62,426 nucleotides of DNA. It comes from Phyllobacteriaceae bacterium (GTDB taxonomy: Bacteria; Pseudomonadota; Alphaproteobacteria; Rhizobiales; Rhizobiaceae). Position 1 is the stretch's first letter, and every line of letters begins with the position of its first letter. Below the pieces are notes generated by a model, which saw only the letters and a list, made by a program, of their open reading frames with translations, was not told the DNA's origin and did no database searches. The translations under genes and the position numbers were made by a program. This document shows positions 24,272-59,981 of this stretch, piece by piece. Location: the NCBI GenBank assembly GCA_031423755.1, contig JANPGC010000174.1, positions 1 to 62,426 on the forward strand. The letters run 5' to 3'.

Positions 24272-24351
24272 ACATTGACAGAACTAATCGCGCACCCATT
24301 GAAATTAGAATTAAAACATCCATATACCATCCACACAGATGGAAAGTTGTC

Positions 24352-37719: not shown

Positions 37720-37726
37720 TCTGGCC

Positions 37727-38527
37727 TCAAACAAATGTGCATGACACGGAGCCGAACGGACCGAAGTCTGCTTCGACAAGACTGCCGGACGGCGCTTCGA
37801 CGGGACGGATAAACGAGCCTGACAGCACGACATCCCCGGCGTTGATCGAACCGCCGTAGACTTCAAGACGGTTTGCCAGCCACGCGATGCCCATGGCCGG
37901 ATCGTTCAGCACCCCGGCGCCAAGGCCGGTTTCCTCGACCTCGCCATTGCGCGATACGATTGCGCCCACCCAGCGCAAATCCATTGCGCGTGGGTCGTGC
38001 TTCTGGCGGCCAAGCACGATGCCGGCATTGGCGGCATTGTCGGAAATGGTGTCGAAGATGGTGCGGGCTTTCTTGGTTTCCGGGTCCGTGCGCACAATGC
38101 GCGTATCAAGAATTTCGAGAGACGGCGCGACGTAATCCGTGGCTGCCAGCACCTGCTCTGTCGTACAATCCGGACCTGACAGGTCTGATTTCATCACGAA
38201 CGCAATTTCGGCTTCGATGCGCGGCTGGATGAAGCGGTGCTTCGGGATCGCCTCGCCATCCTGGAAGAACATGTCATCAAGCAAAACGCCGGAATCCGGG
38301 ATGTCAATGTTGAGCGCATATTGCATCGCCTTCGATGTCAGTCCGATTTTCCAGCCTTTGACGATGCGGCCACGCGCAATCTTGCGGCGCACCCATGCTG
38401 CCTGAATGGCATAAGCGTCGTCCATGGTGATTGACGGATGGGCAAGGCTGAGCAGGCCAATTTGCTTGCGGCAGCGTTCAGCGCTGTCCAGCGAGGCCGC
38501 CGCAACTTCGATGTCTTGGGGCGTCAT
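37727..38527 (-). CDS. hpaH: 2-oxo-hept-4-ene-1,7-dioate hydratase
   Basis: 266 aa. Strong resemblance to E. coli HpaH ([32 protein letters not shown]; [12 protein letters not shown]; GVLN.PA.G.AWLAN). Confidence 0.88.
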
Positions 38528-40820: not shown

Positions 40821-40831
40821 TTTAAATGTCC

Positions 40832-41812: not shown

Positions 41813-41815
41813 TGT

Positions 41816-43333
41816 TCAGCCCCCCAGCTTCTGGATCGCGTGCGGCGCAGTGGCGAATGCAATGTTCTTGGTTTCCATGTAAAAATCGAACGAATGATCG
41901 CCGCCATCGCGGCCAATGCCGGAGTTTTTCACGCCGCCGAACGGCGTCGGCAAATGGCGGACGTTCTCGGAATTCACCCAGATCATTCCGGCCTCCAGCC
42001 CATCTGAGAAACGGAAGGCGCGGGTGACATCGCTGGTCCAGAGGTAGCCGGTCAGGCCGTATTGAACATCATTGGCCAGCGCCAGCGCCTCGGCTTCGTC
42101 CTTGAACGGAATGGCTGTCAGCACAGGTCCGAAAATTTCCTCTTGCGCGATGCGCATCTGGTTGTTGGCACCGGTGAAGAGCGTCGGCGAGACATAGCAG
42201 CCGCCTCCGGGGCCATCGAACTTGTTGCCACCAGCCGCGACAATCGCGCCCTCGCTTTTGCCGATTTCTATGTATTCCAAGACTTTCTTTTCGTGCACCG
42301 GATGGATCAACGGGCCGACAACTGTTGCAGGATCAAGCGGATGGCCAACCTTGATGCGTTTGGCCTTCTCCGCGACCATGGCGGTGAATTTCTCGTAGAT
42401 CGATGCCTCTACCAAAAGGCGAGACGAAGAGGTGCAGCGTTCGCCGTTGAGCGAGTAGATCATGAAGACGGCGGCATCGGCGGCGCGTTCGAGATCGGCG
42501 TCGGCAAACACGACGCACGGGTTTTTGCCACCAAGTTCGAAGTGGACGCGCTTCAATGTTGCCGCCCCCTGGCGCATGATCATCGAACCGGTACGGCTTT
42601 CACCGACGAAGCCGATGGCCTTGATATCCGGATGTTCGGTGAGCGCCTTGCCTGCCTCTTCGCCAAGCCCGTTGATCAGGTTCCAGACGCCCTTCGGCAG
42701 CCCGGCTTCCTCGGCGATCTCAACCAAGAGCCGCGCCGTTAATGGCGAGAATTCGGCAGGCTTGTGCACAATGGTACAGCCTGCCGCCAGTGCCGGAGCG
42801 ATCTTCCAAGTGGACAGCATGAACGGCGTGTTCCATGGCGTTATCACACCAACCGGGCCAATCGGCACCCGCGTGGTCATGTTGACCTGGCCCTCCGTGC
42901 GCAGTGTTTCACCATCGCGGGCTTGCGGCGCAAGATCGGCGAAATAGCGGAAATTTTCCGCCCCGCGCAGTGCGGCTTTGGCCATGAATTTCAGCGATTG
43001 GCCGGTGTCCATGCACTCGACGAACGCAAGCTCTTCGGCGCGGGCAGCGATGGCATCGGCGATCTGGTGCAAAAGCCTTTTGCGCGCTGTGCCCGGCATT
43101 GCCGCCCAATCCTTGAAGGCAGCCTTGGCAGCCTTGGCCGCGCGGTCGATGTCTTCCGCTTTGCCTCGCGCGACACGGGCCATGGGTTTCAGATCAATGG
43201 GCGAAATGATCTCGAACGTGGACCCGTCGGCGGCGGGCACAGCTTCGCCGCCGATCTGATTCAAGACGCCATGGTCGCGGAACCGCTTGAGATACAGGTT
43301 CGCTTTTGCAATGTTGGCTTCAAGTTGCGACAT
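41816..43333 (-). CDS. hpaE: 5-carboxymethyl-2-hydroxymuconate semialdehyde dehydrogenase
   Basis: 505-aa NAD aldehyde dehydrogenase (ELGGKNP, catalytic Cys in GERCTSSSR). hpa operon context. Confidence 0.85.
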   Translation of the reverse strand: MSQLEANIAKANLYLKRFRDHGVLNQIGGEAVPAADGSTFEIISPIDLKPMARVARGKAEDIDRAAKAAKAAFKDWAAMPGTARKRLLHQIADAIAARAEELAFVECMDTGQSLKFMAKAALRGAENFRYFADLAPQARDGETLRTEGQVNMTTRVPIGPVGVITPWNTPFMLSTWKIAPALAAGCTIVHKPAEFSPLTARLLVEIAEEAGLPKGVWNLINGLGEEAGKALTEHPDIKAIGFVGESRTGSMIMRQGAATLKRVHFELGGKNPCVVFADADLERAADAAVFMIYSLNGERCTSSSRLLVEASIYEKFTAMVAEKAKRIKVGHPLDPATVVGPLIHPVHEKKVLEYIEIGKSEGAIVAAGGNKFDGPGGGCYVSPTLFTGANNQMRIAQEEIFGPVLTAIPFKDEAEALALANDVQYGLTGYLWTSDVTRAFRFSDGLEAGMIWVNSENVRHLPTPFGGVKNSGIGRDGGDHSFDFYMETKNIAFATAPHAIQKLGG

Positions 43334-43344
43334 GGTTGCTCCCG

Positions 43345-43731
43345 TCAGGATCCGCGCAGCCGCGCGTGGATGGCATTTTTCTTCCAGCTCAATGCCGGAT
43401 CGTTTTCGACAAGGTCAACTGAAAGAGCAAAGTGAGGCGTCGCAAACAGCGGCGCGAGCATTTGCGAAAGTGTCGAATGCAATGTCTCTCCGACGCGCTT
43501 CTTTTCCTCAAGCGTACGCCCTGCCCCGATGCGAACAAGCACGGCGAGAAACGCATTCTCCCGCGCTTCGTCTGCAATCGCATAATGATCGCAACGAAGC
43601 GCCCGCACACGCACGGCGCCAAGCTCGAACAGGCCGGTGTCCATCATTGTGGCCTTGGCCGCCTTGCACAGCTCGGCGATATCAACCGTGGCCTCCAGAT
43701 TGGCTGAATATTCCATCGTCAGATGCGGCAA
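43345..43731 (-). CDS. hpaF: 5-carboxymethyl-2-hydroxymuconate isomerase (tautomerase superfamily)
   Basis: 128 aa. TTG start giving (M)PHLTMEYSANL, colinear with E. coli HpcD MPHFIVECSDNI. GGGGAGAG RBS. Confidence 0.85.
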   Translation of the reverse strand: MPHLTMEYSANLEATVDIAELCKAAKATMMDTGLFELGAVRVRALRCDHYAIADEARENAFLAVLVRIGAGRTLEEKKRVGETLHSTLSQMLAPLFATPHFALSVDLVENDPALSWKKNAIHARLRGS

Positions 43732-43756: not shown

Positions 43757-43768
43757 TTAACATGTTAA
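43757..43768. promoter_or_regulatory. 12-bp perfect palindrome TTAACATGTTAA, candidate HpaR (MarR) operator
   Basis: Lies in the 105-bp divergent hpaF/hpaR region, 26 nt upstream of the hpaF start. Confidence 0.4.
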
Positions 43769-43836: not shown

Positions 43837-44319
43837 ATGGTTACAGGATCAGATCCCCTCGTTGGCGACAATTCCAACAACGCGCCTGTTGATGGCGTGC
43901 AGCCACGACTGACGCGCCGCTCACTGCCAATTGCTCTGCTTCGTGCGCGTGAATCCGTGATGGCCAAGTTCCGCCCGATGCTTGCCAGACATGACATGAA
44001 CGAACAGCAATGGCGCGTCATCCGCATTCTTGGCGAGGCCGGAGAGTTGGACGCAACGGAACTGGCGGACCGGGCGCTGGTGCTGGCCCCGAGCCTGACC
44101 CGCATGATCAAATCGCTGAAAACCCGCAAGTTGATCACGCTGCGCAAAGACAAGGAGGACGGCCGCCGGACGCTGATTTCAATCACGCCAGCAGCACGGA
44201 AGCTGATCGCAGAAATTTCTCCGGAAAGCATGCAGATCTACCGCGATCTCGAAAAGTCCTTCGGCAAGGACGAAATGGAACGGCTGCTTGATCTGCTCGA
44301 GGCTGTATCGAAGCTTTAG
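43837..44319 (+). CDS. hpaR: Homoprotocatechuate degradation operon regulator, MarR family
   Basis: 160 aa from ATG 43837 (alternative ATG at 43807). Colinear with E. coli HpaR (IALLRARESVMAKFRPMLARHDMNEQQWRVIRIL). Confidence 0.8.
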   Translation: MVTGSDPLVGDNSNNAPVDGVQPRLTRRSLPIALLRARESVMAKFRPMLARHDMNEQQWRVIRILGEAGELDATELADRALVLAPSLTRMIKSLKTRKLITLRKDKEDGRRTLISITPAARKLIAEISPESMQIYRDLEKSFGKDEMERLLDLLEAVSKL

Positions 44320-44321: not shown

Positions 44322-45539
44322 TTAGCTTGTCAGGAACGCCTTCAGGCTGAATCCGGACTGTCCGGCCTGTTCACGGGTCAGCACCTTGCCGCTGTCCAGA
44401 AGCTTGCGTGACATGGCAAAAGTAACCGGATCATTGAAACAATCCGCAGCAAGGAACGCTCCGTCACGGAAATAAAGATGCGCCCGCGTCGAGCCGGTGC
44501 CGGATTGAACCAGAATATCATCATAGCCCGTATTCAAGCCGGCAATTTGCAGCTTCATGTCAAACTGGTCCGACCAGAACCACGGTGTGGAGCGGTAGAC
44601 GAGTTCTTGTCCGGTAATATTTGCGGCGGCAACGGCACCTTGGTCATTGGCATTTTGGACCGACTCAAGGCGGATGTGACCGCCTTCATAGGGAAAGCTG
44701 GCGCAGTCACCGACAGCATAGACGCAAGGGTCGGAGGTGCGCATGCAGCTATCAACGACAACACCGTTGCCGATTGAAAGCCCGGCGTTCTCGGCGACGT
44801 GTGTGTTGGGCGAAATGCCGATGCCCACCACCACAAAGTCCGCAGGAACTGTCTCGCCGCCCTCAAGTTCAACGCCGACCGCTGATCCGTTGCTGCCGGC
44901 AATCCGGTCAATATGCACACCCTCGCGAATTGTCACGCCGTGGCCCTGATGCAGGGCGCGCAAATGGTCCGAGGTTTGGCGGGCAGCCACACGTTTGACG
45001 ATGCGGTCGGCCGCTTCCAACACCGTCACCTGCACGCCTTTCTTGGCCGCCTCTGATGCCGCCTCAAGCCCGATATAGCCGCCACCGATAACCACCAGAC
45101 GTCTGCCTTCGACCATCTCGTGCTTGAGCCGATCCGCATCGCCCAGATCGCGCATGGTATGAACGCCCTTGAGCGCACCGCCCCTGTCCGCCGGAAATTG
45201 GCGGGGCGACGCGCCGGTTGCCAGCACGAGTGCGTCGTAGGACAGGTTCTGGCCGGACGAGAGCGAGACTGTCTGGGCCGCGCGGTCAATCGTTGTGGCA
45301 GTCATACCGCGCAGCAAATTGATACTGTTTTCGGCAAACCAGCTTGCAGGTCGCAAAGCGATAGTCTCAAGCGCCGCCTTGCCGGACAGGTAAGCCTTGG
45401 AGAGAACCGGGCGCTGGTATGGATGGGCATCCTCTGCGCTGACGACGGTGATTTGGGCCAATGGATCTAGCGCGCGCAACCTGGCGGCAGCGGCAATGCC
45501 GCCGTGGCTTGCTCCAACAATGACCGTATGGCGCGCCAT
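44322..45539 (-). CDS. NAD(P)H-dependent ferredoxin reductase (putidaredoxin-reductase type FAD oxidoreductase)
   Basis: 405 aa from ATG 45539 (MARHTVIVGASHGG). Two Rossmann GxGxxG motifs (VIGGGYIGLE). Located immediately downstream of the ferredoxin gene. Confidence 0.85.
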   Translation of the reverse strand: MARHTVIVGASHGGIAAAARLRALDPLAQITVVSAEDAHPYQRPVLSKAYLSGKAALETIALRPASWFAENSINLLRGMTATTIDRAAQTVSLSSGQNLSYDALVLATGASPRQFPADRGGALKGVHTMRDLGDADRLKHEMVEGRRLVVIGGGYIGLEAASEAAKKGVQVTVLEAADRIVKRVAARQTSDHLRALHQGHGVTIREGVHIDRIAGSNGSAVGVELEGGETVPADFVVVGIGISPNTHVAENAGLSIGNGVVVDSCMRTSDPCVYAVGDCASFPYEGGHIRLESVQNANDQGAVAAANITGQELVYRSTPWFWSDQFDMKLQIAGLNTGYDDILVQSGTGSTRAHLYFRDGAFLAADCFNDPVTFAMSRKLLDSGKVLTREQAGQSGFSLKAFLTS

Positions 45540-45543
45540 CAAA

Positions 45544-45864
45544 TCAGCCTTGAGGAACGATGAGTACGAGGCCATCCAGCGCCGGAGAGACGATGACCTG
45601 GCAGCTCAAGCGGCTGAACTCCGTCTTCGGGGCTTCCGTGATTTCAAGCATCGCATCCTCAATGTCGCCTGGCTTTCCTGCGCGGTCGGTCCAGTCTTCA
45701 TCGACATAGACATGACACGTTGCGCAAGAAAGGCACCCGCCGCATTCGCCGACAACGCCGGCGACATTGTTGGCCACTGCGGCGTTCATCAGGTTCATTC
45801 CGTCAGCAACTTCGGCGCTGATTATCGAACCGTTCGCCAGGTTCCAGGTGATCTTGGCCATCAT
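45544..45864 (-). CDS. [2Fe-2S] ferredoxin, adrenodoxin/putidaredoxin type
   Basis: 106 aa. Cys ligand pattern ECGGCLSCATCH...LSCQ. Confidence 0.85.
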   Translation of the reverse strand: MMAKITWNLANGSIISAEVADGMNLMNAAVANNVAGVVGECGGCLSCATCHVYVDEDWTDRAGKPGDIEDAMLEITEAPKTEFSRLSCQVIVSPALDGLVLIVPQG

Positions 45865-45880
45865 GTTTGTTCCGAATCTG

Positions 45881-47155
45881 TCAGATGTAATGGATGTAGA
45901 AGTCGCGCAGCGCGTCGCCTTCCAGCTGGGATGTCTTTTCGATTTCGTCGCGCTTGATGAAGACATGATTTTCACAAAGCAGCCGACCGACGGCCTCCAT
46001 CAGGGCGCCATCTGCCTCCAGCGCATCGAGTGCGCCGCCCAGCGTTTCAGTAACGCCATCAACGGCTTCGTGTTCGGTCAGGCAATTGGCTGTTTCCATC
46101 GGTGGCAGCGGATATTTGTTGACGAAACCCAGCCGCGCCGCCTGCAGCGTCGTCGCCACCAGCGTATAGGGATTGGACGCGCCATCGCCCATCCGGTGCT
46201 CGATGCGCGCCTTGGGACCGCGTTCGGCGGAGATCCGCGTGGTGACGCCGCGATGGTCACCGCCCCAGTTGCGCCAGTAGCCGGACAGCGATGATGGTTT
46301 GAGGCGCTGGTAGGAGTTGACCGTCGGCGCAACCAGCGCTGCCATCGCCTGATGATGGTGCATGAGCCCGGCAATGCAGCCCTGCGCCACCGGGCTCAGA
46401 CTATCCGGTTCGCCAACCGCATTGTTGCCGTGCTCGTCCTTGAATGAGAAGTTCACGTGCAGCCCGCTGCCACCTTTGGACAGGATGGGTTTGGGCATGA
46501 ATGTCAGCACAATTCCGAATTCCAACGCCGTTTCCCGTGCCAATTGGCGGAACAGGAAAATGTCATCCACGGCCTTCAGGGCACGGTCATAGGTCAGCGT
46601 AAACTCGTATTGCGGCGTGTCAAACTCGGAGGTCATGGAGTCGATGGCAAAGCCGAGCGCCGTGGCCCGCTCCCATATCTCGTCCATGAACCCGCGCGGA
46701 TCAGCAAATGGGCCGGTGGCGTAGACATAGCCTTTGGGCGTCTCATATGGCACGAGCTTGCCGTCATCGTCGTGCTGGAAGGCGAAGCACTCCAGCTCCA
46801 GCCCGATCATCGGGTCAAATCCAATCGTATTCCAATCGCTGATCGCCTTCTTCAGCGCCTGACGCCCGCACGCGCCGAACGGCTGGCCTTCTTCATAGAG
46901 ATCACCGACGACGATCCTGGTGTTGTCTTCCCAGCCGTCGCGCACATCCGCGCCAAGGTAGCGCACTTCCAAGTCTGGCAGGCCTTCCAGAACCTTGGAG
47001 CCCGGCGACGGGATGAGATCCCTGTCGTAGGTCACTCCAAAGGTGCTCTGGCAAACGCGCGTGCTGTTCGTGCCAATTTTTGAGGCGGGCAGATACTTTC
47101 CGCGCGCCAGATTCAAATGGTCACAGAACAAGACCCGCAATCGTTCGTTGGACAT
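45881..47155 (-). CDS. Glutamine-synthetase-family gamma-glutamyl-amine ligase (PuuA/IpuC-like)
   Basis: 424 aa from ATG 47155 (GGGAGGGG RBS; the ORF-track start is GTG). GS catalytic-domain motifs (GLELECF, KP...GSGLHVNFS, NSYQRL, RIEHR). Confidence 0.8.
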   Translation of the reverse strand: MSNERLRVLFCDHLNLARGKYLPASKIGTNSTRVCQSTFGVTYDRDLIPSPGSKVLEGLPDLEVRYLGADVRDGWEDNTRIVVGDLYEEGQPFGACGRQALKKAISDWNTIGFDPMIGLELECFAFQHDDDGKLVPYETPKGYVYATGPFADPRGFMDEIWERATALGFAIDSMTSEFDTPQYEFTLTYDRALKAVDDIFLFRQLARETALEFGIVLTFMPKPILSKGGSGLHVNFSFKDEHGNNAVGEPDSLSPVAQGCIAGLMHHHQAMAALVAPTVNSYQRLKPSSLSGYWRNWGGDHRGVTTRISAERGPKARIEHRMGDGASNPYTLVATTLQAARLGFVNKYPLPPMETANCLTEHEAVDGVTETLGGALDALEADGALMEAVGRLLCENHVFIKRDEIEKTSQLEGDALRDFYIHYI

Positions 47156-47177
47156 CGCTACCCCTCCCACAGTCTAT

Positions 47178-48440
47178 TCAATTCAGCTCAATCTTGACCG
47201 GCATGCTCTTGATGCCGCCGACAAAATTGGAGCGCAGATAATGCTGTTCGCCGGTCTGCTTGATCGATTTGACCCGCTTGGCGAATTCCTGAAACAACAG
47301 CCGGATTTCAAGTCGTGCCAGCCACATGCCGAGGCACACATGCGCCCCGCCCTGCCCGAAAGCCACGTGCCGGTTTGGCGAGCGGCGGAAATCCACCTTG
47401 AATGGATTGTCGAACACCGCTTCATCTCGGTTCCCGGACACAAACCACAAAAGCACCTTGTCGCCCTCGCGCAGTGTTTTGCCATGCAGCTCGTGATCGC
47501 GCGTCACCGTGCGGCGGAAATACATGGCAGGCGACGCCCAGCGGATCACTTCGTCCGGCATGGTGTCCCAGATGGTTTCATCATTGCCCTGAAGGTCTTC
47601 CAGCAATCCCGGCTGGTTGGCGAGCGCCTGCAATCCGGCTGCGATCGAATAGCGCGTCGTGTCGTTGCCCGCCGCCACCAGTAGGCAGAAGAAATTGCGG
47701 AACTCTTCCTCGGAAATCACATTGCCTAGGGAATCCGGCTGCATGATCAGATTGAGCACGCCTGTCGTGTCGCCCTTGCGCCGCTTGTCTGCCATCAGCT
47801 TCTTTGCGTAGTCGAAAAGGTCCGCGCCAGCCGGCGAGCGGAACGGCATCAGCCGGTAGGCATCCGTGTCAGCCTTGTCGAGCACATGGTCGGTGAAGTC
47901 GGAATCCGTGTTTGCGATGAGCGCGTCGCCCTTTTCGACCAGCCAGTTCAAATCCTCGTCCGGCGTGCCCATGATCTGCCCAAGCATCCGCATCGGCAAT
48001 TGCCGCGCCAGACTTTTGACCGCATCGAATTCGCCAAGCGGTAGAACGTCGTCGAGTATCTCGTCGCATAGCTGGCGGATTTGCGTTTCAAACAGCGCGA
48101 CGACCGGCTTGGAAAATGCCTTGGCAACCAGAATGCGCATGCGGGTATGGTCTGGCGGATCGGTTTCCTGAAAGGTCCGCCGCGCCAGATATTCCTCGTA
48201 GGTCTGGTCTTCCATGCGAATGCCGTGCGCCGAGGAATAGAGCGCATTGTTGCGGTTGCACTCGTGGATGTCTTCGTTGCGCGTGATCGACCAGAAGCCC
48301 TGTCCCGCCGGATAGTCGCACCAGGCAACCGGTTCCTCGCTTCTCAGCCGTGCAAACGTGTTGTGCGGCGCACCGGACACGAACGCATCGTGGCTCGAGA
48401 GATCGGCGTGGCCGTCGTCATTGGGAACCCAGACCGTCAC
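47178..48440 (-). CDS. Cytochrome P450 monooxygenase
   Basis: Heme-binding loop FGQGGAHVCLG, ExxR motif and I-helix AGNDTT. GTG 48440 is preferred (GGAGAA RBS) over the ORF-track TTG at 48455. Confidence 0.85.
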   Translation of the reverse strand: MTVWVPNDDGHADLSSHDAFVSGAPHNTFARLRSEEPVAWCDYPAGQGFWSITRNEDIHECNRNNALYSSAHGIRMEDQTYEEYLARRTFQETDPPDHTRMRILVAKAFSKPVVALFETQIRQLCDEILDDVLPLGEFDAVKSLARQLPMRMLGQIMGTPDEDLNWLVEKGDALIANTDSDFTDHVLDKADTDAYRLMPFRSPAGADLFDYAKKLMADKRRKGDTTGVLNLIMQPDSLGNVISEEEFRNFFCLLVAAGNDTTRYSIAAGLQALANQPGLLEDLQGNDETIWDTMPDEVIRWASPAMYFRRTVTRDHELHGKTLREGDKVLLWFVSGNRDEAVFDNPFKVDFRRSPNRHVAFGQGGAHVCLGMWLARLEIRLLFQEFAKRVKSIKQTGEQHYLRSNFVGGIKSMPVKIELN

Positions 48441-48552
48441 GAACTTTCTCCTCAAAAACTTCGTTGCAAAATGTAGAACACATGTTAAATATATTTACAA
48501 GCCTCATTTGCACACATATAAAATATTCCTGCATGCACAATTGGAGAAAGTC

Positions 48553-49269
48553 ATGAAACGACGCATTGGAATTCTGCTGACCTGCGTCGACGATTCGGAA
48601 TTCGCCAAGCGCTTCCCGGACGACGGCGAAAAGTTCCGCCGTCTGTTGCAGCCGCTGCGGCCGGAATGGAAATTTGTGACGGTGCCGGTCAAGGATGGTG
48701 TGTTTCCTGAACAAGCCAGTGATTTTGACGGCTATATTATCACCGGCAGTCCGGTTTCGGTGAATGCAAATTCCAAATGGATCAAGCAGCTGTTTGGCTT
48801 CATCCGCGAGCTGGACGCCAAGAAAGTTCCGACGTTCGGCGCCTGCTTCGGACATCAGGCTATTGCCATGGCGCTGGGTGGCACAGTCGAAAAATCAGAT
48901 AAGGGTTGGGGACTGGGCACGGCCAAAACCGAGTTCGACAACTTCGCCCCTTGGATGGAGCCGCAACAGAAGAAGATGACGCTGTTCGCGGCGCATGAGG
49001 ACCAAGTGACGACGCTGCCGAAAGACGCCGTGGTTTTGGGTGGCAGCGAATTCTGTCCCTATGGGTCCTACCGCATCGGTTCGCACATTTTTACCACTGA
49101 ATATCACCCTGAGATGACGCAGGAGTTTGTATCGGCGCTTTTGGATGAGCTTGAATCCGGGCTTGACGTTGAGACGATTGCCGCAAGTCGCCGATCCCTG
49201 AGCGCGCCGGCGGAAGGTCCGGCATTTGCACAGTGGATCGTTAATTTTCTCGATAAATCAGCTTGTTAG
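48553..49269 (+). CDS. Class I glutamine amidotransferase-like hydrolase (candidate gamma-glutamyl-amide hydrolase, PuuD/IpuF role)
   Basis: 238 aa from ATG 48553 (GGAGAAAG RBS). Nucleophile GACFGHQ and His-Glu pair YHPE. Confidence 0.75.
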   Translation: MKRRIGILLTCVDDSEFAKRFPDDGEKFRRLLQPLRPEWKFVTVPVKDGVFPEQASDFDGYIITGSPVSVNANSKWIKQLFGFIRELDAKKVPTFGACFGHQAIAMALGGTVEKSDKGWGLGTAKTEFDNFAPWMEPQQKKMTLFAAHEDQVTTLPKDAVVLGGSEFCPYGSYRIGSHIFTTEYHPEMTQEFVSALLDELESGLDVETIAASRRSLSAPAEGPAFAQWIVNFLDKSAC

Positions 49270-49929
49270 ATGACGAGACTTTGACAGCATGGCGATGAGG
49301 TCCATGGCGGTCACACTGTCAAAGGTCACATGCTTGACCATGGCTTCCTCTGCACCCGTTACGTCCCGGTCCACAATCAGCGCGGCGATTTTGCTGTGCT
49401 CGATTGCTGACTGCGGAATGCTGCCCTTGTAGGCATAGCGGGCGCGATAGTAGGCGAGGAGCTTGCGGCCATTGGTGCGGATCATCTCCATCAAAAACGG
49501 ATTGTGCGCGGCAAGGCCGACAGTTTTGTGGAAGGCCAGATTGTGCTGATAGTAGGCATTGGGCATGGTGTCAGCGAGCGTTGCCACATGGTGATCGCAA
49601 GCAGCGCAGGCGCGTTCCAGCGCGGCAGCGTCATCGACGGAAAGGCGGCGCGCAGCCAATGCCGCGGCGTGGCCCTCGAGCTTGGCATGGACTTCGAGAA
49701 TGGCGAGGAATTCCTCCAGCGTCGGCTGAAACACTTCCGCCCCGCCACGGGCCTTGCGCCGCAAAATACCAACCGCATCAAGTTGCAGCAGCGCTTCGCG
49801 CACAGGCGTTCTGGAGAGGCCAAATTCGCTGACCAGCGCCTTCTCCTCCAGCACATCGCCGGGCGACAGCGTGCCGTCTTCGATGCGTTTGACGATGTGC
49901 TCAACGATCATGTCAGTTTGATTGCTCAT
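49258..49929 (-). CDS. GntR-family (FadR/FCD subfamily) transcriptional regulator
   Basis: 223 aa. wHTH (LVSEFGLSRTPVREALLQLDAVGIL) plus an all-helical FCD-like C-terminal domain. Confidence 0.85.
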   Translation of the reverse strand: MSNQTDMIVEHIVKRIEDGTLSPGDVLEEKALVSEFGLSRTPVREALLQLDAVGILRRKARGGAEVFQPTLEEFLAILEVHAKLEGHAAALAARRLSVDDAAALERACAACDHHVATLADTMPNAYYQHNLAFHKTVGLAAHNPFLMEMIRTNGRKLLAYYRARYAYKGSIPQSAIEHSKIAALIVDRDVTGAEEAMVKHVTFDSVTAMDLIAMLSKSRHLTS

Positions 49930-49938
49930 GCTGCATCA

Positions 49939-49971
49939 TATGTATTTTCAACATGCTTGTGAATATACATA
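49939..49971. promoter_or_regulatory. 33-bp imperfect palindrome (TATGTATTTTCA-N9-TGAATATACATA), candidate GntR operator
   Basis: 12-bp arms matching 11/12. Located 10-42 nt upstream of the GntR ATG, in the 50-bp gap after the aldehyde dehydrogenase gene. Confidence 0.35.
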
Positions 49972-49979
49972 CTTTCCGG

Positions 49980-51464
49980 TCAGAGCTGTATCCACGCCGT
50001 TTTCAGGTCGGAAAACTTGTCCAGCGCATGCAGCGACTTGTCATGGCCATTGCCGGATTGACCGACGCCGCCGAGCGGCACCGTGTTGTCCGACCCGCCG
50101 TAGGTGTTCACATGCACCACCCCTGCGCGGATGTTGCGCACCATGCGGTGTGCCTTGGAAAGGTTTGACGTCCAAACCGCTGAAGCCAATCCATAGACTG
50201 TAGAATTGGCAATCCGCACCGCATCCGCCTCGTCCTTGAACTTCATCACGCCCAGCACCGGTCCGAACACTTCCTCTTGAGCCAGATGCATCTTCGGCTC
50301 AATGCCGGAAAAGACGGTCGGCGACATGTAGAAACCACCGGTCTCCTCAAGAATGCGCTTGCCGCCGGTCTGCAAAAATCCGACTTCCACTTCGGCGCGA
50401 TGGACGAATTCCAGATCTTTTTCCAACTGGTCCAGACTGGTCACCGCACCGGCTTCGGTGCTGAGATCAAGCGGGTCGCCAACTTTGATCTTCGATGCGA
50501 TGGAAGAAACCCTGGCCACAAACTCGTCATGGATGCTCTCTTCCACCAACAGCCGCGATCCTGCCACACACACCTGCCCGGAATTGCGGAAGATGCCATA
50601 GGCGGAAATCTTCGCGGCTTGGTCCAAGTCGGGCGCGTCGGCGAAGACAACGTTTGGAGACTTGCCGCCAAGTTCGAGATAGCAGCGCTTCATGTTTGAG
50701 CGGGCGGAATATTCCATCAGCTTGCGGCCGACAAAGCCGGACCCCGTGAACGCCATCACGTCGACATCCATGTGGAGGCCGAGCGCCTCACCGCAGACCG
50801 AGCCTTTGCCCGTGACGACATTCAATACTCCGTCCGGAAGCCCTGCTTCTGAACACAGTTCTGTCAAACGCAACAATGACAGCGAAGCGGCTTCGGCAGG
50901 TTTCAGCACCACAGAATTTCCAGCCGCAAGCGCTGGTGCAATTTTCCAGGAGCCGATCATCATCGGAAAATTCCACGGCACAATTGCCGCGACGACGCCA
51001 ACAGGTTCGCGGTGGATCAGGCCGAGTATATTGGGCGCAGTCGGGGCGATTTCTCCATAAACCTTGTCGATGGCTTCAGCATAATAGCGGAACGTGCCCG
51101 CTGCACTGCCCGGCTCTGCCTTCAGCGCCATGGAAATTTCCGTACCATTGTCGCGTACGCCAAGCACCGCGAGTTCAACCGCATGCTTCTCGATCAGGTC
51201 GGCGATGCGGTGCATCACCCTTTTGCGTTCGGCAGGCGCCGCGCGCGACCAGACGCCGCTGTCGAATGCCTTGCGTGCGGCAGCAACTGCACGATCCGCG
51301 TCCGCCGCTGATGCGCGGGCGATACTGGTGAACACCTTGCCATCAATAGGCGAAATGACATCCAGTCTGCCTCCGTCTTCAGCCTTGGACCAAGCGCCGT
51401 CGATGAACAGGTCGCGCCCGGATACGGGCAGCACGCGCAGGCGATCGATTTCGGATTGACTCAT
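49980..51464 (-). CDS. NAD-dependent aldehyde dehydrogenase, PuuC-like (gamma-glutamyl-aminoaldehyde type)
   Basis: 494 aa from ATG 51464 (GAGGA RBS). Motifs ELGGKSP, catalytic Cys GQVCVAGSR, and the RYYAEAIDKVYGE segment resembling E. coli PuuC. Confidence 0.8.
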   Translation of the reverse strand: MSQSEIDRLRVLPVSGRDLFIDGAWSKAEDGGRLDVISPIDGKVFTSIARASAADADRAVAAARKAFDSGVWSRAAPAERKRVMHRIADLIEKHAVELAVLGVRDNGTEISMALKAEPGSAAGTFRYYAEAIDKVYGEIAPTAPNILGLIHREPVGVVAAIVPWNFPMMIGSWKIAPALAAGNSVVLKPAEAASLSLLRLTELCSEAGLPDGVLNVVTGKGSVCGEALGLHMDVDVMAFTGSGFVGRKLMEYSARSNMKRCYLELGGKSPNVVFADAPDLDQAAKISAYGIFRNSGQVCVAGSRLLVEESIHDEFVARVSSIASKIKVGDPLDLSTEAGAVTSLDQLEKDLEFVHRAEVEVGFLQTGGKRILEETGGFYMSPTVFSGIEPKMHLAQEEVFGPVLGVMKFKDEADAVRIANSTVYGLASAVWTSNLSKAHRMVRNIRAGVVHVNTYGGSDNTVPLGGVGQSGNGHDKSLHALDKFSDLKTAWIQL

Positions 51465-51525
51465 TTTGTCCTCGTTTGAAATGGCAAGGGCGGCAGTCTC
51501 CCGCCGCCCTCGATAGCTCAATGTA

Positions 51526-52965
51526 TCAAGTGTTGCGGCCGAGTTCGCTGAACTTGACCGGGTTGCGTCTTTCTAGGCTGCCTGCTGACAGGTAGCCGAT
51601 GATTGCCGCGACAAGCACCAGCGACGGCAGCGCCACGCCGAGCGTGCCAGACGCGCCGGTGAGATCGCCAAACTTCGCGAAGATGTAGACAAACAGCAAT
51701 GCGAGGATGGCACCGGTGATCATCGGCAATATCTTGGTGGCAAGCGCCGTTTCGCCCAAGTCGCTCTTGCCGAAGAACGACACCACGGCAAAGGACGTGA
51801 TGCCCATCAGGCCGAGAATACCCAGCGTGCCGAGCTGCGTCAGCCAAGTGAACAGCTGCAGCACCGGATCCATGCCCATGATGGCAAAGAAGCCGACGAC
51901 AACAACCGCAAGCACGGTCTGGATGATGGAGCCGACATGCGGGCTTTGGTAAGTGTCATGAGTCACGCCGACAGATGCCGGAAGAATGCCCTCGCGACCA
52001 GCCACATATTTGTAGCGCGCCACACCATTGTGGAAGGCCAGAACGCCGGCAAAGAGACTCGATACGAACAGGAAGCCCATGATCGTTGGAACCGGTCCGC
52101 CGACGTAACGACCGGCAAGTTCAAACAGGAACGTCGTCGGATCAGCCAGCGACTGCAATGTCGGAACCAGCTTGTCCACACCCGCGCCGTTGGCCATCAG
52201 CCAAGCGGTGACCATGTAGAACACGCCGATCAGAATTACCGAGAGATAAGTCGCCTTCGGCACCGTTGTGTGGGGATCGCGCGCTTCTTCGGAATAGATG
52301 GTTGTCGCTTCAAAGCCGATAAAGGCGGCGAAGCAGAACAGTATGCCGATGGCGGGTGAGCCGCTCATGATCTGGCTGATGCTGAATGGTGCCATTGAAA
52401 GGCCGCTGTCGCCGCCTTTGACGAAAATCGCCACGTCGACAATCAAAACGATGACATATTCAAGCAATACCAGCGCCATCAATATCTTGGCCGAAAGGTC
52501 CACCTGCCGATAACCCAGAACGGCGCAGAACGCGATGCCGACGAAGCTCCACACCCACCAGGGCAGATCGATTCCGATGGAGGCAAATGTCCCTGCCGAC
52601 GCTGCGCCCAAAAGGCCGAGAATGCCGATCTGCATCGCGTTGTAGCTGAGGATGGCAATCAGCGCGGCGGCACCGCCGATTTTGCCGCCAAGGCCGCGCG
52701 CTGCAAATGCGTAGAAGCCGCCCGCGCTTGATATATGCCTTGCCATCGCAACGTAGCCGACTGCGAAGGCGATCAGGATGATTGTTGTGAGCAGAAATGA
52801 TCCGGCAATGCCGGCACCGTTTCCGAGCAGCATGCTGATTGGCACACCGCCCGCCACTGCGGTCAGAGGCGCTGCCGCCGATATGACCAGAAATGTGACA
52901 GCGCCGACCCCGAGGCTGTTTTTGCGCAGCTGGTTTGCCCCCGCCGCATTTGTTGAATTTGCCAT
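51526..52965 (-). CDS. APC-superfamily amino acid/amine permease
   Basis: 479 aa from ATG 52965 (GGAGGG RBS; the ORF-track start is TTG). About 12 TM helices with an APC-type N-terminus. Confidence 0.85.
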   Translation of the reverse strand: MANSTNAAGANQLRKNSLGVGAVTFLVISAAAPLTAVAGGVPISMLLGNGAGIAGSFLLTTIILIAFAVGYVAMARHISSAGGFYAFAARGLGGKIGGAAALIAILSYNAMQIGILGLLGAASAGTFASIGIDLPWWVWSFVGIAFCAVLGYRQVDLSAKILMALVLLEYVIVLIVDVAIFVKGGDSGLSMAPFSISQIMSGSPAIGILFCFAAFIGFEATTIYSEEARDPHTTVPKATYLSVILIGVFYMVTAWLMANGAGVDKLVPTLQSLADPTTFLFELAGRYVGGPVPTIMGFLFVSSLFAGVLAFHNGVARYKYVAGREGILPASVGVTHDTYQSPHVGSIIQTVLAVVVVGFFAIMGMDPVLQLFTWLTQLGTLGILGLMGITSFAVVSFFGKSDLGETALATKILPMITGAILALLFVYIFAKFGDLTGASGTLGVALPSLVLVAAIIGYLSAGSLERRNPVKFSELGRNT

Positions 52966-53104
52966 TGTACCCTCCAATTTGCAATTCGCCCCAACAGATC
53001 CCCTGTTTCATTATTTGAACCATCGGTGCAAATAGAGACTTGCAAAATTCCAAATGTGATGTCAAGTTATTTCACATGTTAAGCGACTAGGGAGTTCGAC
53101 CTTG

Positions 53105-53878
53105 ATGGGCACTGTCAGCAAAGCGCTTGGATTGATTGAGCTTTTGCGTGGAAGCGGCCATCCGCTCGGCCTGACCGAACTTGCCCGCCTTGCCGGGTTC
53201 GACAAGGCGACAACGCGCCGCCTGCTGTTGGAACTTGCCGCAAACGGCTATGTCGAGCAGGACGGAGAGTCGCGCGGCTATGCGCTTGGTCCTGCGTTGC
53301 AAATGCTTGGGCGCGCCCGGGAAAACCGATTTCCGCTGAACCGCGCCATTCAGCCAGCCGTCCGCTCCCTGTCTGAACTCACCGGCGAAACTGTCCATGC
53401 TACCGAATATTGCGCCGGGTCTCTCGCTTCAATCTTCACGGTCGAGTCGGGCAAGGCGAACCGGGTGATCCTCGAGCATGGCCAGAAGCTTCCCCTTCAC
53501 GCCACAGCATCGGGCTACGCGTTTCTTGCCGCTTCTTCGGACGCATTCGTTGAAAGCGTTTGCCGCAGACAGTTTGAGGTTTACACGCCAACCACGCCAA
53601 CGGACAGCAATGCATTGCTGGACATCGTGCGCGCAACGCGCGAGCGCGGCTACTCCATCTCCAACCAATCAATGGAAGAAGGCGTTTCGAGTGTCGCTGC
53701 AGCCATTCGCGGCGTTGGCGGCAAGCCTGTCGGAACAATGGCAATCGCCATGCCGGCGAGCCGTGTCACGCCTGATGTGATCCGTGAGTATGGCGAGCTG
53801 GTGCGCCAAAGCGCGGCCCAAGTCTCTGCGCGCCTCTTTGGCAAATCAACCGTCCAACCCTTCCGCAAGGCTTCTTGA
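53105..53878 (+). CDS. IclR-family transcriptional regulator
   Basis: 257 aa. N-terminal wHTH (VSKALGLIELLRGSGHPLGLTELARLAGFDKATTRRLLLEL) and a C-terminal IclR effector domain. Confidence 0.85.
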   Translation: MGTVSKALGLIELLRGSGHPLGLTELARLAGFDKATTRRLLLELAANGYVEQDGESRGYALGPALQMLGRARENRFPLNRAIQPAVRSLSELTGETVHATEYCAGSLASIFTVESGKANRVILEHGQKLPLHATASGYAFLAASSDAFVESVCRRQFEVYTPTTPTDSNALLDIVRATRERGYSISNQSMEEGVSSVAAAIRGVGGKPVGTMAIAMPASRVTPDVIREYGELVRQSAAQVSARLFGKSTVQPFRKAS

Positions 53879-53881
53879 CAC

Positions 53882-55132
53882 ATGGCTGCTTCCACACCCC
53901 GCATTCTGCTGATCGGCACTGGTGATACCAAGTCCGATGAGCTCAATTTCATGAAGTCCTGCATTGAAGACGCAGGTGGCATTGCTGTGATGATGGACGT
54001 TTCCGTCCTCGGCAACCCGCAATATGTGCCGGACTATTCCAAGCATGACATCGCCGCTGCAGCGGGCACGACCATTGAAGGCATCATCAATTCCGGTGAC
54101 GAAAACTCGGCCATGGCGTTGATGGCATCCGGCGCATCAAAACTTGCGCGCAAGCTTTATGATGACGGCAAGATGGATGGCACGATCATTCTTGGCGGTT
54201 CCATGGGTACGGATCTGGCGCTGGATGTCGCCGCCGCGCTGCCGCTCGGGGTGCCGAAATTTGTGGTGTCGACCATCTCCTTCTCGCACCTCATCCCGCC
54301 TGACCGCATCTCGACGGACTTGATGATGATCCTTTGGGCGGGTGGGCTTTATGGCCTCAACAGCATCTGCAAATCCGTGCTCAGCCAAGCCTGCGGCGCG
54401 GTCGTTGGGGCGGCGAAAGCCAGTGTCCGGCCGCAGACCGAACGTCCCATCATCGGCATGACCTCGCTCGGCAAGAGCTGCCTGAAATACATGGTGCCGA
54501 TTAAACCGGCGCTGGAAGCGCGCGGCTATGAAGTGGCGGTCTTTCATACAACAGGCATGGGCGGGCGGGCATTTGAATCCGTTGCCTCACAGAACGGGTT
54601 CGCCGCAGTGATGGATTTTTCGTTGCAGGAAATCGTCAACCACGAGAACGGCGTGCTTGCCACTTCGTCCGGCTGGGACCGGTTGGAGAACGCAGCAAAA
54701 CTTGGCATCCCGCAGATCGTCGCGCCGGGCGCGGTCGATATGGTGGATATCCAATCCTGGGCACCGCTGCCACAGCACTTTGCCGACCGGCCATACCATG
54801 CGCACAACCGGCTGATCGGCTCGATCACCACCGACCCTGAAGGACGCCGCCAGACGGCGCGCACCATTGGCCACAAGCTGGAACGGGCATGGGGTCCGGT
54901 CGCGTTCATCCTGCCTGCAGGTGGCATTGAAGAATGGGATCAGGAGGGCGAGCCGCTGCATGATCCCGAAGGTTTGCGCGCTTTCAGCGAAGCGATGCGG
55001 CTGGCCATCAAACCGCCCGTCGAGTTCCACGAAATTCCGGACCATATCAACAGCCCGGCGTTTGCAACCAAGGCGCTTGAGGTCTTTGACGCGTGGGTCG
55101 CGGATGGCATCATACCGGCAGGCGTCAAATGA
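53882..55132 (+). CDS. UPF0261 / Tm-1-like ATP-binding protein (function unknown)
   Basis: 416 aa. The N-terminus RILLIGTGDTKSDELNFMKSCIEDAGG and the length match the UPF0261 family as I remember it. Confidence 0.65.
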   Translation: MAASTPRILLIGTGDTKSDELNFMKSCIEDAGGIAVMMDVSVLGNPQYVPDYSKHDIAAAAGTTIEGIINSGDENSAMALMASGASKLARKLYDDGKMDGTIILGGSMGTDLALDVAAALPLGVPKFVVSTISFSHLIPPDRISTDLMMILWAGGLYGLNSICKSVLSQACGAVVGAAKASVRPQTERPIIGMTSLGKSCLKYMVPIKPALEARGYEVAVFHTTGMGGRAFESVASQNGFAAVMDFSLQEIVNHENGVLATSSGWDRLENAAKLGIPQIVAPGAVDMVDIQSWAPLPQHFADRPYHAHNRLIGSITTDPEGRRQTARTIGHKLERAWGPVAFILPAGGIEEWDQEGEPLHDPEGLRAFSEAMRLAIKPPVEFHEIPDHINSPAFATKALEVFDAWVADGIIPAGVK

Positions 55133-55803
55133 CTTTGCAGAAAGCGCTGATCCTCGACTTCGGCGGCGTCGTCACGCGCACATTGTTTGAGACACATGAC
55201 CTCACCGAGAGGGCGCTTGGCCTTGATCCCGGTACGCTGACTTGGCGCGGTCCATTTGCGCCGGAGACTGATCCGCTCTGGGTGTCGATGCAAAACCGGG
55301 AGATCACCGAGCGTGACTATTGGATGACCCGCACGCGCGAAGTCGGAAGGCTTGTGGGTGAGGAATGGACATCGATGATGCAGTTCGTGCAAAGCGCGCG
55401 TGGGGCGGAACCTGCTCTGGTGCTGCGAACGGAGGCACGCGAAGCGATTCTGGCAACCAAGGCGTCGGGGCTGAAACTTGCGATATTGTCCAACGAACTC
55501 GACCTATTTTACGGCGTCGAGTTTCGCAAGCGCTTCCCGTTGATCGAACTGTTCGACGTGATCATCGACGCCACATACACGCAAATTCTCAAGCCTGATC
55601 CACAAGCCTACCAGCTTTGTCTCGATGCTTTGAACCTGAAAGCATCCGACTGTGTGTTTGTGGATGACCAGATGAAGAATGTGGAGGGCGCGCTCGCCCT
55701 AGGCATTCCCACCGTCCATTTTGATGTGACAGATCCCGGCAAGAGCTACGCTGAAGCGTTGGCTTTGCTGGGTTTATATGACAAGGAAAAAGCCCATGCG
55801 TGA
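55129..55803 (+). CDS. HAD-superfamily hydrolase (subfamily IA-like phosphatase)
   Basis: 224 aa from ATG 55129 (ATGA overlap). Motif I LILDFGGVV, motif III/IV K...FVDD. Confidence 0.8.
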   Translation: MTLQKALILDFGGVVTRTLFETHDLTERALGLDPGTLTWRGPFAPETDPLWVSMQNREITERDYWMTRTREVGRLVGEEWTSMMQFVQSARGAEPALVLRTEAREAILATKASGLKLAILSNELDLFYGVEFRKRFPLIELFDVIIDATYTQILKPDPQAYQLCLDALNLKASDCVFVDDQMKNVEGALALGIPTVHFDVTDPGKSYAEALALLGLYDKEKAHA

Positions 55804-59902: not shown

Positions 59903-59952
59903 GGCAATTACCCCGTTGATAGTTACAAAATGGATCGTTACGAATGCAACCA

Positions 59953-59964: not shown

Positions 59965-59981
59965 GCATGGGAGGGCCAGCC

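Follow-up and report, generated by a model that had tools for sequence, protein, structure and literature searches.

Gene content of the cluster

The DNA analysed here, referred to throughout as the window, is a stretch of 62,426 nt from a Phyllobacteriaceae bacterium (assembly GCA_031423755.1, contig JANPGC010000174.1, positions 1 to 62,426, forward strand). Positions 44322-52965 hold a cluster of eight genes encoding a cytochrome P450, a glutamine synthetase (GS)-like ligase, a ferredoxin (Fdx), a ferredoxin reductase (FdR), a glutamine amidotransferase (GATase)-type hydrolase, a regulator, an aldehyde dehydrogenase (ALDH) and a permease, which we tentatively link to the degradation of arylethylamines. 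The cluster is real and widely conserved in alphaproteobacteria. An earlier note, made from the sequence of the window, had described it as an amine pathway of the gamma-glutamylation type, resembling the Ipu and Puu pathways, and had suggested that the amine could be aromatic. Open reading frame (ORF) listing combined with Pfam and NCBIfam profile searches and comparison with solved structures recovered all eight genes at the coordinates given there, located every catalytic motif it had quoted in the translated proteins, and agreed with its part list and its logic of gamma-glutamylation, P450 oxidation, hydrolase, ALDH, permease and regulator. The limits it had drawn held for the gene coordinates but not for the extent of the unit, which appears larger: an hpa-decarboxylase operon seems to be co-regulated with the cluster, and a module containing an IclR regulator and an omega-transaminase is usually present.

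Four of the genes form a run on the minus strand. The gene encoding the cytochrome P450 monooxygenase (47178-48440, 420 amino acids; p450, 5e-18) starts with a GTG codon 7 nt past the sequence GAGGAG, and its product contains the heme-cysteine motif FGQGGAHVCLG at residues 361-371, the acid-alcohol pair of the O2-activating I-helix (AAGNDTT) and the ExxR motif EVIRW. It is followed by the gene for the GS-like ligase (45881-47170, with a likely ATG start at 47155; Gln-synt_C, 8.6e-68), by that for a 105-amino-acid [2Fe-2S] ferredoxin of the putidaredoxin/adrenodoxin type (45544-45861; Fer2, 2.9e-8), which has the cysteine ligand motif CGGCLSCATCH at residues 40-50 and a further cysteine in LSCQV, and by that for a ferredoxin-NAD(P)+ reductase (44322-45575, alternative start 45539; Pyr_redox_2, 4.4e-69; Reductase_C, 4e-23). 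The heme-thiolate cysteine, I-helix, ExxR motif, [2Fe-2S] ferredoxin and FAD reductase of a class I bacterial P450 system were thus all found, and FdR is the predicted redox partner of the P450, its best NCBIfam models being ferredoxin reductases of dioxygenase systems, all under cut-off. The solved structures nearest to the P450 were an entry named CYP125MRCA (6e-93), then CYP268A2, CYP124, CYP125 and CYP153; P450s of the CYP125, CYP124, CYP268A2 and CYP153 types are aliphatic C-H hydroxylases. Relatives with more than 72% identity are many, and every one is generically named.

Divergent from this run, across a promoter region at 48441-48552, is a plus-strand gene encoding a stand-alone class-I GATase-type hydrolase (48553-49269; GATase PF00117, 3e-15). 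The Cys-His-Glu triad is intact (GACFGHQ at residues 96-102, YHPE at residues 184-187) and the nearest solved structure was Arabidopsis gamma-glutamyl peptidase 1 (2.9e-20), suggesting a gamma-glutamyl-amide hydrolase or glutaminase. The remaining three genes are on the minus strand and encode a GntR-family regulator of the FCD subfamily (49258-49929; GntR, 1e-16; FCD, 1.6e-23), an NAD(P)+ ALDH (49980-51521, ATG start 51464; Aldedh, 4.8e-161) with its catalytic cysteine in GQVCVAGSR (residues 296-304) and glutamate in ELGGKS, and an APC-superfamily permease (51526-52965; AA_permease_2, 6e-21) predicted to take up an amine or amino acid. Profile searches confirmed the absence of an FAD amine oxidase and of an alcohol dehydrogenase from 44322-52965, as the earlier note had stated; no PuuB-type FAD oxidase was found in the cluster, where weak DAO and Amino_oxidase matches covered only the Rossmann part of FdR, and no Rieske oxygenase was found among the cluster proteins in Pfam and NCBIfam scans.

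Comparison with known systems

Ipu is the isopropylamine pathway of Pseudomonas sp. KIE171; ipu clusters are also annotated on pTC1 and pTC2 of Paenarthrobacter aurescens TC1. The TC1 clusters include a permease, IpuC, a multicomponent P450 system (P450, ferredoxin and its reductase), aldehyde dehydrogenases and a hydrolase of the amidotransferase type, and the scheme is to protect the amine, hydroxylate it distally and deprotect it (PMC6776027). The annotated pTC1 region of P. aurescens TC1 contains that same part list, with the GS-like ligase, the P450 with Fdx and FdR, the class-I GATase-type hydrolase, the ALDH and the permease common to both systems. The P450 system at the oxidation step is therefore not the departure from Ipu for which it had been taken, since annotated ipu clusters already have it; the Ipu/Puu-like reading of the cluster is sound, but its general enzyme logic is already known from ipu. 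Against the TC1 counterparts the ALDH reached 39% identity, and the ligase, P450, reductase and hydrolase only 27-29%, the ligase having 29% identity to IpuC over 425 amino acids (both Gln-synt_C), the P450 and FdR 28% each to the TC1 trio, and the GATase 27% over 156 amino acids to a TC1 GATase. Orthology with Ipu, including the ligase as an IpuC orthologue, was rejected at these identities of only 27-39%. Unlike Ipu, the window cluster lacks an alcohol dehydrogenase in 44322-52965, has a GntR/FCD regulator, and has its genomic and regulatory ties with arylacetate ring cleavage and a DOPA-type decarboxylase rather than with s-triazine or alkylamine genes; its predicted regiochemistry is oxidation next to the nitrogen with release of an aldehyde, whereas that of Ipu is distal hydroxylation.

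With the Puu pathway of Escherichia coli (PuuP, PuuA, PuuB, PuuC, PuuD, PuuE and PuuR) the cluster has in common the gamma-glutamylation logic, an APC-type permease and the best ALDH model, but it uses a P450 system for the oxidation and is without the flavin oxidase PuuB. Equivalence of its proteins to PuuA, PuuC and PuuD did not survive the profile searches. The ligase scored 174.8 bits against the PuuA model NF045547 (cut-off 650), 183.3 against the type III GS model TIGR03105 (cut-off 470) and 162.5 against the GlnA model TIGR00653 (cut-off 429); all of these curated cut-offs were missed, and its assignment as PuuA, GlnA or type III GS was rejected. It is predicted to be a gamma-glutamyl-amine synthetase. 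For the ALDH the best model was PuuC (NF007352), at 573 bits yet below the curated cut-off of 850, so that PuuC was rejected as well; models of the phenylacetaldehyde dehydrogenase StyD gave 431-443 bits, and the enzyme is a predicted arylacetaldehyde dehydrogenase. PuuD belongs to the Peptidase_C26 family, whereas a Pfam search of the GATase protein at E<=1e-3 matched PF00117 only and not Peptidase_C26. On these scores and identities, the cluster proteins appear to be a separate, uncharacterised family, apart from the Ipu and Puu parts.

Related combinations of enzymes occur in other amine degraders. The pip cluster of Pseudomonas sp. KU43P is said to encode a gamma-glutamylpiperidide synthetase that glutamylates piperidine before P450 hydroxylation, and reportedly has a GntR-type regulator, PipR. 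Clusters of the PipA/MorA type in N-heterocycle degraders encode a P450 with Fdx and FdR and have an adjacent, co-induced glutamine synthetase gene (PMC9477822). Likened by description and not by sequence, these systems, known from mycobacteria (CYP151) and from Gulosibacter, have the P450, Fdx, FdR and adjoining GS-like gene in common with the window, but they act on N-heterocycles and are not linked to hpa, hmgA or paa genes or to any aromatic amino-acid decarboxylase. The aniline systems AtdA1-A5 and TdnQTA1A2B combine a GS-like ligase, a GATase-like protein and an oxygenase with electron-transfer partners near catechol cleavage genes; they differ in having a Rieske dioxygenase instead of a P450, in acting on a nitrogen attached to the ring, and in having no ALDH or decarboxylase. 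Closest in its proposed task, conversion of tyramine or dopamine via the arylacetaldehyde to (di)hydroxyphenylacetate and Hpa meta-cleavage, is the catabolon of Pseudomonas putida U, in which the free amine is reportedly deaminated directly and HpaBC used; in the window neither an HpaB-type hydroxylase nor such an oxidase was found, and the ligase/P450 pair is in that position. This 3,4-dihydroxyphenylacetate catabolon (tyn + hpa) is considered here as cited in PMC10606097 (Arcos et al., 2010). No characterised member of the window's module was found in the sources searched.

Conservation across alphaproteobacteria

Relatives were sought by scanning one genome per species with tblastn (E<=1e-3), giving 238 loci, the best 80 of which (68-97% P450 identity) were fetched with flanks ending at 10 kb (about 10-14 kb for Dongia and Novosphingobium); absences may thus be only apparent. 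Gene calls in these loci were heuristic, by codon-position GC score, and many loci come from related genomes, so that counts are not independent events. The core of GntR, GATase, P450, GS-like and Fdx genes recurred in 80 species-level alphaproteobacterial genomes (the best 80 of the 238 loci), from Phyllobacteriaceae (closest, at 93-97%), Rhizobiaceae, Hyphomicrobiales, Dongia and many Rhodobacteraceae, including Shimia, Thalassovita, Aliiroseovarius and Seohaeicola. The order GntR> GATase< P450> GS-like> Fdx> was almost invariant, the GS-like gene always following that of the P450. Fdx was kept after the GS-like gene and GntR beside the GATase in most loci. About 70 of 81 loci had the GATase in divergent orientation to the P450; in Dongia and Novosphingobium it was missing. 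An FdR orthologue was found in Phyllobacteriaceae, in Dongia and in two further loci (L059 and L072), and APC permease orthologues adjoined the cluster in Phyllobacteriaceae, Rhizobiaceae and Dongia. About 40 loci had an orthologous ALDH (66-91% identity) within 10 kb, which belonged to the GntR operon in some and to a TctCBA-ALDH operon controlled by IclR in others. An omega-transaminase gene together with IclR was located beside the P450 cluster in 31-35 loci, including the annotated megaplasmid of Ruegeria sp. TM1040. In that strain an FkbM-family methyltransferase gene (L081, 15421-16167) follows the GS-like gene where other genomes carry the ferredoxin, and the cluster, which adjoins paaABCD and a gene for a 2Fe-2S reductase-like protein, has genes for a Tm-1-like protein and a PaaI thioesterase at its end.

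A second type of cluster was found in Dongia and on a Novosphingobium plasmid (L013, 4484-14107; L020, 4551-14092; L083, 11685-21135), with P450, GS-like, Fdx and FdR genes co-operonic or divergent with genes for an HpcB (LigB-type) dioxygenase, a FAH-family protein and ALDHs, and further with an acetoacetate-decarboxylase-family protein (ADC, weakly MppR-like) and a MarR regulator but no GATase or GntR. In Dongia a single operon reads ALDH, HpcB-type dioxygenase, FAH, ADC, (decarboxylase), P450, GS-like, Fdx and FdR, and on the Novosphingobium plasmid P450, GS-like and ALDH genes are divergent from that of the HpcB-type dioxygenase, accompanied by ADC, FAH, a second ALDH and Fdx. Within the flank of about 10-14 kb fetched for these clusters no GATase, transaminase or kinase/lyase gene was found nearby, which leaves the ligase/P450 pair as the sole candidate for deamination there.

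Association with aromatic catabolism

Downstream of the FdR gene lies a homoprotocatechuate meta-cleavage operon (36916-43731, minus strand) that includes an aromatic-amino-acid decarboxylase, a placement that the earlier note had recognised and that profile searches showed to be correct. It consists of hpaF (43345-43731; Pfam CHMI, 7e-46), hpaE (41816-43333; NCBIfam 770, cut-off 638), hpaD (40832-41812; 416, cut-off 321), the gene for a pyridoxal phosphate-dependent aromatic-L-amino-acid (DOPA-type) decarboxylase (39396-40820; Pyridoxal_deC, 7e-93), a FAH/HpaG-like gene (38524-39399), hpaH (37727-38527; 411, cut-off 352) and hpaI (36916-37866; 390, cut-off 369), all on the minus strand. The MarR-family regulator HpaR (43837-44319, probable start 43837; TIGR02337, 158, cut-off 121) is encoded on the plus strand between the operon and the cluster. 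With HpaD, HpaE, HpaH, HpaI and HpaR all above their NCBIfam equivalog cut-offs, the operon belongs to the Hpa meta-cleavage pathway. A scan of ORFs across the window gave no HpaB-type 4-hydroxyphenylacetate 3-hydroxylase (HpaBC), although one may lie elsewhere in the genome.

For the decarboxylase, the best solved structure was 7xin (1.7e-115), an entry named DOPA decarboxylase. The protein retains a tyrosine in the catalytic loop (in KPEYLK; phenylalanine in the aligned 6eei) and the active-site histidine (in QVHTSIDRA), positions at which aldehyde synthases carry phenylalanine or asparagine, and therefore the amine and not the aldehyde is expected as its product. On the same residues, the possibility that it is an aldehyde synthase giving 3,4-dihydroxyphenylacetaldehyde (DOPAL) directly was rejected. 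In 21 loci an orthologous decarboxylase gene adjoined the P450 cluster.

On the other side of the cluster, on the plus strand, are the homogentisate 1,2-dioxygenase gene hmgA (59901-61298; TIGR01015, 700, cut-off 511) and a gene for a FAH-family hydrolase (61295-62317; FAA_hydrolase, 9e-39), so that ring-cleavage routes for homoprotocatechuate and homogentisate flank the amine cluster within the window. Genes for hmgA and FAH were also beside the P450 cluster in 12-14 Rhodobacteraceae loci. Of the 62 loci that were 15 kb or longer, about 34 had hpa, hmgA/FAH, paa or decarboxylase genes within 10 kb, and no fewer than seven arrangements were seen; HpaE tblastn matches at 35-40% identity were left out of these counts, being confounded by the cluster ALDH. 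Full or partial hpa sets accompanied the core in Phyllobacteriaceae, a metagenome-assembled genome (MAG) of Hyphomicrobiaceae, Aestuariivirga, Shimia and Salinihabitans; the series hmgA-FAH-MBL-FAD monooxygenase-decarboxylase-HpaI was directly upstream of GntR in Thalassovita, Lutimaribacter, Seohaeicola and relatives; and paaABCD(E) was next to GntR in Ruegeria sp. TM1040 and Arenibacterium. The variety of arrangements is a stronger argument than the locus counts.

A GcoA-like aromatic O-demethylase P450 (about 1e-85 to solved GcoA) is encoded beside the permease in Dongia and in L002, the closest relative. Enzymes of the GcoA type convert guaiacyl compounds to catechols, and the position of this gene in the relatives points to catechol-forming chemistry. 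It is located at about 5124-6305 in L002 and at 785-1972 in L020, occurs also in L004, L012, L018 and L023, and has no counterpart in the window, whose permease and ALDH genes are directly adjacent.

Upstream of the permease, divergent from it, is the module that contains the omega-transaminase, an apparent operon on the plus strand (53102-59444) running from IclR through a kinase, whose membership of the system is uncertain. It encodes IclR (53102-53878), a UPF0261/Tm-1-like ATP-binding protein (53882-55132), a HAD hydrolase (55093-55803), the omega-transaminase (55778-57148), a class-III aminotransferase of the phospho-lyase type (57145-58434), which matches PRK06148 in its C-terminal part, and an APH/homoserine-kinase-like kinase (58431-59444). 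The combination of a kinase with a phospho-lyase is known for vicinal amino-alcohols, and the pair encoded here suggests the handling of such compounds, for example of the octopamine/noradrenaline type.

A shared operator-like motif

The intergenic region between the GATase and P450 genes contains a conserved AT-rich element, the 22-mer TTGTAAATATATTTAACATGTG at 48479-48500, which is unique in the window. Its core, TTAACATGT (48480-48488), occurs at only three places in the 62-kb window, all of them relevant promoters, against an expected count of 0.08, and the observed count was reached in none of 100 shuffles. Besides the P450/GATase promoter, these are the operator-like site TTCACATGTTAA / TTAACATGTG at 53071-53082, upstream of the permease-ALDH-GntR operon and divergent from the IclR gene, and the perfect palindrome TTAACATGTTAA at 43757-43768 between hpaR and hpaF, 26 nt upstream of hpaF, with which the hpa-decarboxylase operon begins. 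The 14-mer TATATTTAACATGT is present in both the P450 and the hpa promoter.

A loose version of the motif, scanned over 1.47 Mb of related loci, gave 67 sites, 44 of which were at the P450(/GATase) promoter. Among the 23 others, 17 were 27-119 bp upstream of genes for CHMI (5), HpaD (2), the decarboxylase (4), APC (5) or ALDH (1); no relevant gene was assigned to the remaining 6. Those preceding the genes for CHMI, HpaD or the decarboxylase were at 27-46 bp; they occurred in 11 related loci, from Phyllobacteriaceae, a Hyphomicrobiaceae MAG, four Shimia species and four Thalassovita-type genomes; those upstream of APC were at 68-119 bp (L002, L006, L007, L008 and L017), and that upstream of ALDH at 80 bp (L015). 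Because the GntR/FCD protein is the sole regulator that co-occurs with the motif across these lineages, it is the probable binder of TTAACATGT and probably a repressor of the regulon. Synteny with hpa, hmgA, paa and decarboxylase genes and the shared motif thus lend the suggestion of an aromatic amine comparative support that is independent and, as computational support goes, substantial. Gene content, catalytic motifs, synteny and the recurring motif are observations, from which we infer the substrate, each chemical step and the regulator that binds.

Proposed pathway and alternatives

We propose that the cluster encodes an ATP-dependent gamma-glutamylation/P450 route from an arylethylamine via the arylacetaldehyde to the arylacetate, the amine most likely being dopamine derived from L-DOPA, a reading to which we give somewhat less than an even chance; tyramine-type amines are also possible substrates. 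The APC permease would import the amine or amino acid, and the decarboxylase of the hpa operon would convert L-DOPA to dopamine. The GS-like ligase would then couple the amine to the gamma-carboxyl of glutamate, and the P450, fed by Fdx and FdR, would hydroxylate the carbon adjacent to the amide nitrogen. The resulting carbinolamide may collapse to the aldehyde and glutamine, or hydrolysis by the GATase may yield aldehyde, glutamate and ammonia, after which the ALDH would oxidise the aldehyde to the arylacetate. Homoprotocatechuate formed in this way from L-DOPA or dopamine would be degraded by the neighbouring, apparently co-regulated hpa operon. The GntR/FCD protein would repress the P450, permease-ALDH and hpa-decarboxylase promoters via the TTAACATGT operator, and the omega-transaminase module may be a parallel route from amine to aldehyde with the ALDH in common; in E. 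coli, too, putrescine is degraded both through Puu and through transaminase routes. On general chemical grounds, N-acylation would also guard a catecholamine against cyclising once oxidised.

Conversion of the arylethylamine side chain to aldehyde and acid is suggested as the common chemistry because the clusters have three arylacetate outputs (hpa, hmgA and paa) and a DOPA-type decarboxylase as input. Hydroxylation next to the nitrogen is favoured over an Ipu-like hydroxylation and release because the Dongia and Novosphingobium clusters are without a hydrolase. Since an L-DOPA or dopamine input would give homoprotocatechuate, an HpaB-type hydroxylase would not be needed. The wider proposition, that this is a widespread alphaproteobacterial system for the degradation of L-DOPA, dopamine and arylethylamines, in which gamma-glutamylation is followed by P450 oxidative deamination to arylacetaldehyde and glutamine under one GntR operator shared with hpa, is put forward more tentatively still.

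Several points weigh against this pathway. The omega-transaminase/IclR neighbour, almost universal, could itself deaminate arylethylamines, leaving another job for the P450, and the GATase, present in about 70 of 81 loci, suits a sequence of protection, hydroxylation and deprotection at least equally well. The nearest solved P450s work on aliphatic chain termini and not on amide alpha-carbons. About 28 of the 62 long loci have no aromatic gene within 10 kb, and the loci come from related genomes, so that the counts are non-independent. In this organism the operator could belong to HpaR instead of GntR, and hpaBC could sit elsewhere in the genome.

Alternatively, the cluster might act on an arylethylamine in the Ipu manner, the P450 hydroxylating a distal position of the gamma-glutamyl amide and the GATase freeing the hydroxylated amine. 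Attack at ring C3 would turn tyramine into dopamine, and attack at the benzylic carbon would give a product of the octopamine/noradrenaline type, from which as from the freed dopamine the omega-transaminase or the kinase and phospho-lyase pair would form the aldehyde for the ALDH. Ipu itself protects, hydroxylates and deprotects in this way (PMC6776027), and the frequency of the GATase, the omega-transaminase/IclR pair in 31-35 loci, and the presence in the window operon of omega-transaminase, phospho-lyase-type aminotransferase and kinase would all fit; the nearest solved P450s hydroxylate the far end of elongated substrates, and the ring-cleavage substrate is a catechol, yet no HpaB-type hydroxylase was found in the window. 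We nevertheless consider it unlikely, given that Dongia and Novosphingobium keep P450, GS-like and ALDH genes by the dioxygenase with no hydrolase, transaminase or kinase/lyase nearby, that the three arylacetate pathways suit a side-chain reaction better than a ring-specific one, that the kinase/lyase pair is linked in just 4 loci, and that a separate GcoA-like P450 provides catechol-forming chemistry in some relatives.

It is less probable again that the substrate is not aromatic and that the aromatic neighbours merely belong to the same catabolic island. Cyclic secondary amines (pyrrolidine, piperidine) or, as in Puu, alkylamines and polyamines would here pass through a gamma-glutamyl amide, P450 alpha-hydroxylation with ring opening, a PuuC-like ALDH and the hydrolase to an omega-amino acid and on to the transaminase, which as a neighbour would play the role of PuuE. 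PuuC is the best model of the ALDH and PuuA the second-best of the ligase, but every Puu model score is far under its cut-off. Degraders of the piperidine/morpholine/azepane type do have a P450 with Fdx/FdR and an adjoining glutamine synthetase gene (PMC9477822), and the long loci that lack aromatic genes nearby would be expected; against this, in several lineages the hpa and decarboxylase promoters carry the same operator as the module, decarboxylase and homoprotocatechuate (HPC) dioxygenase genes are co-operonic with those of the P450 and GS-like ligase in Dongia, and recurrence by three arylacetate pathways in differing arrangements is unlikely to be chance. Very improbable, finally, is an aniline-type reaction, in which a ring-bound arylamine would be gamma-glutamylated as in Atd/Tdn and the P450 would replace the Rieske dioxygenase, giving phenol or catechol and glutamine, with the GATase as a safety valve. 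The trio of GS-like, GATase-like and oxygenase genes near ring-cleavage genes recalls the aniline dioxygenase clusters, and ring-cleavage dioxygenases do adjoin the cluster; such a reaction would, however, leave the conserved ALDH and the aromatic-amino-acid decarboxylase unexplained and would require P450 ipso-substitution, which is unusual chemistry, and the cluster proteins include no Rieske oxygenase.

Possible significance

Catecholamines and L-DOPA serve plants as allelochemicals, algae as defence compounds and animals as signals, and the bacterial routes known to us deaminate the free amine by an oxidase, dehydrogenase or transaminase. In the literature searched, nothing relevant was found on bacterial catabolism via gamma-glutamyl-tyramine, -dopamine, -phenylethylamine or -piperidide, the matches concerning only methanofuran biosynthesis and animal metabolites, which suggests that a gamma-glutamylation/P450 route for dopamine- or tyramine-type amines has not yet been described. 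What would be new is probably the recruitment of such an amine-oxidising module to arylethylamine, probably L-DOPA/dopamine, catabolism. If the proposed route is true, it would be a second, ATP-driven and peroxide-free solution, replacing amine oxidases, dehydrogenases and transaminases and keeping the catecholamine N-acylated while it is handled. It would then be present in hundreds of alphaproteobacterial genomes, including abundant marine genera of the Roseobacter group, with carriers spanning marine Rhodobacteraceae, soil and plant Rhizobiales, Dongia and Sphingomonadales. Functions would be assigned to a highly conserved, generically annotated P450, GS-like ligase and stand-alone amidotransferase, and P450-catalysed amide N-dealkylation would join the repertoire of gamma-glutamylation pathways. 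Cultured, genetically tractable carriers are available in Ruegeria sp. TM1040, Shimia, Thalassovita and Gellertiella.

Other loci in the window

A foreign island or plasmid origin of the region was unsupported, as base composition is uniform (0.56-0.61 GC) and the window also encodes a candidate cyclic beta-1,2-glucan synthase, an enzyme typical of Rhizobiales chromosomes. This is a 2866-amino-acid protein (26593-35193) with GH94 supersandwich and catalytic domains and a glucoamylase-like domain, which we read as a synthase of the NdvB/ChvB/Cgs type, consistent with a Rhizobiales chromosome. A separate aromatic cluster at 2550-16576 encodes a thiolase, two CoA-transferase subunits, a Liv-type ABC transporter, a VOC protein, a LysR regulator, an intradiol dioxygenase (5402-6292), a FAD aromatic-ring hydroxylase (6305-8059) and an Fe-ADH-family protein (12809-13876). 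Maleylacetate reductases belong to the Fe-ADH family, and by its gene content the cluster looks like a hydroxyquinol/resorcinol-type pathway. A general-stress-response locus (17935-24771) comprises genes for a HWE/PAS histidine kinase (17935-20601), PhyR (20704-21552), a HisKA_2 kinase (23175-24215) and a RHH_8 regulator; a PIN-domain gene (17090-17539) and, upstream of it, a small partner ORF (17536-17856) are located nearby. At the start of the window are genes for proteins of the PqqD family (322-609), the TENA/THI-4/PQQC family (606-1358) and the beta-lactamase superfamily (1355-2251), which may be read as pqqD, pqqC and pqqB.

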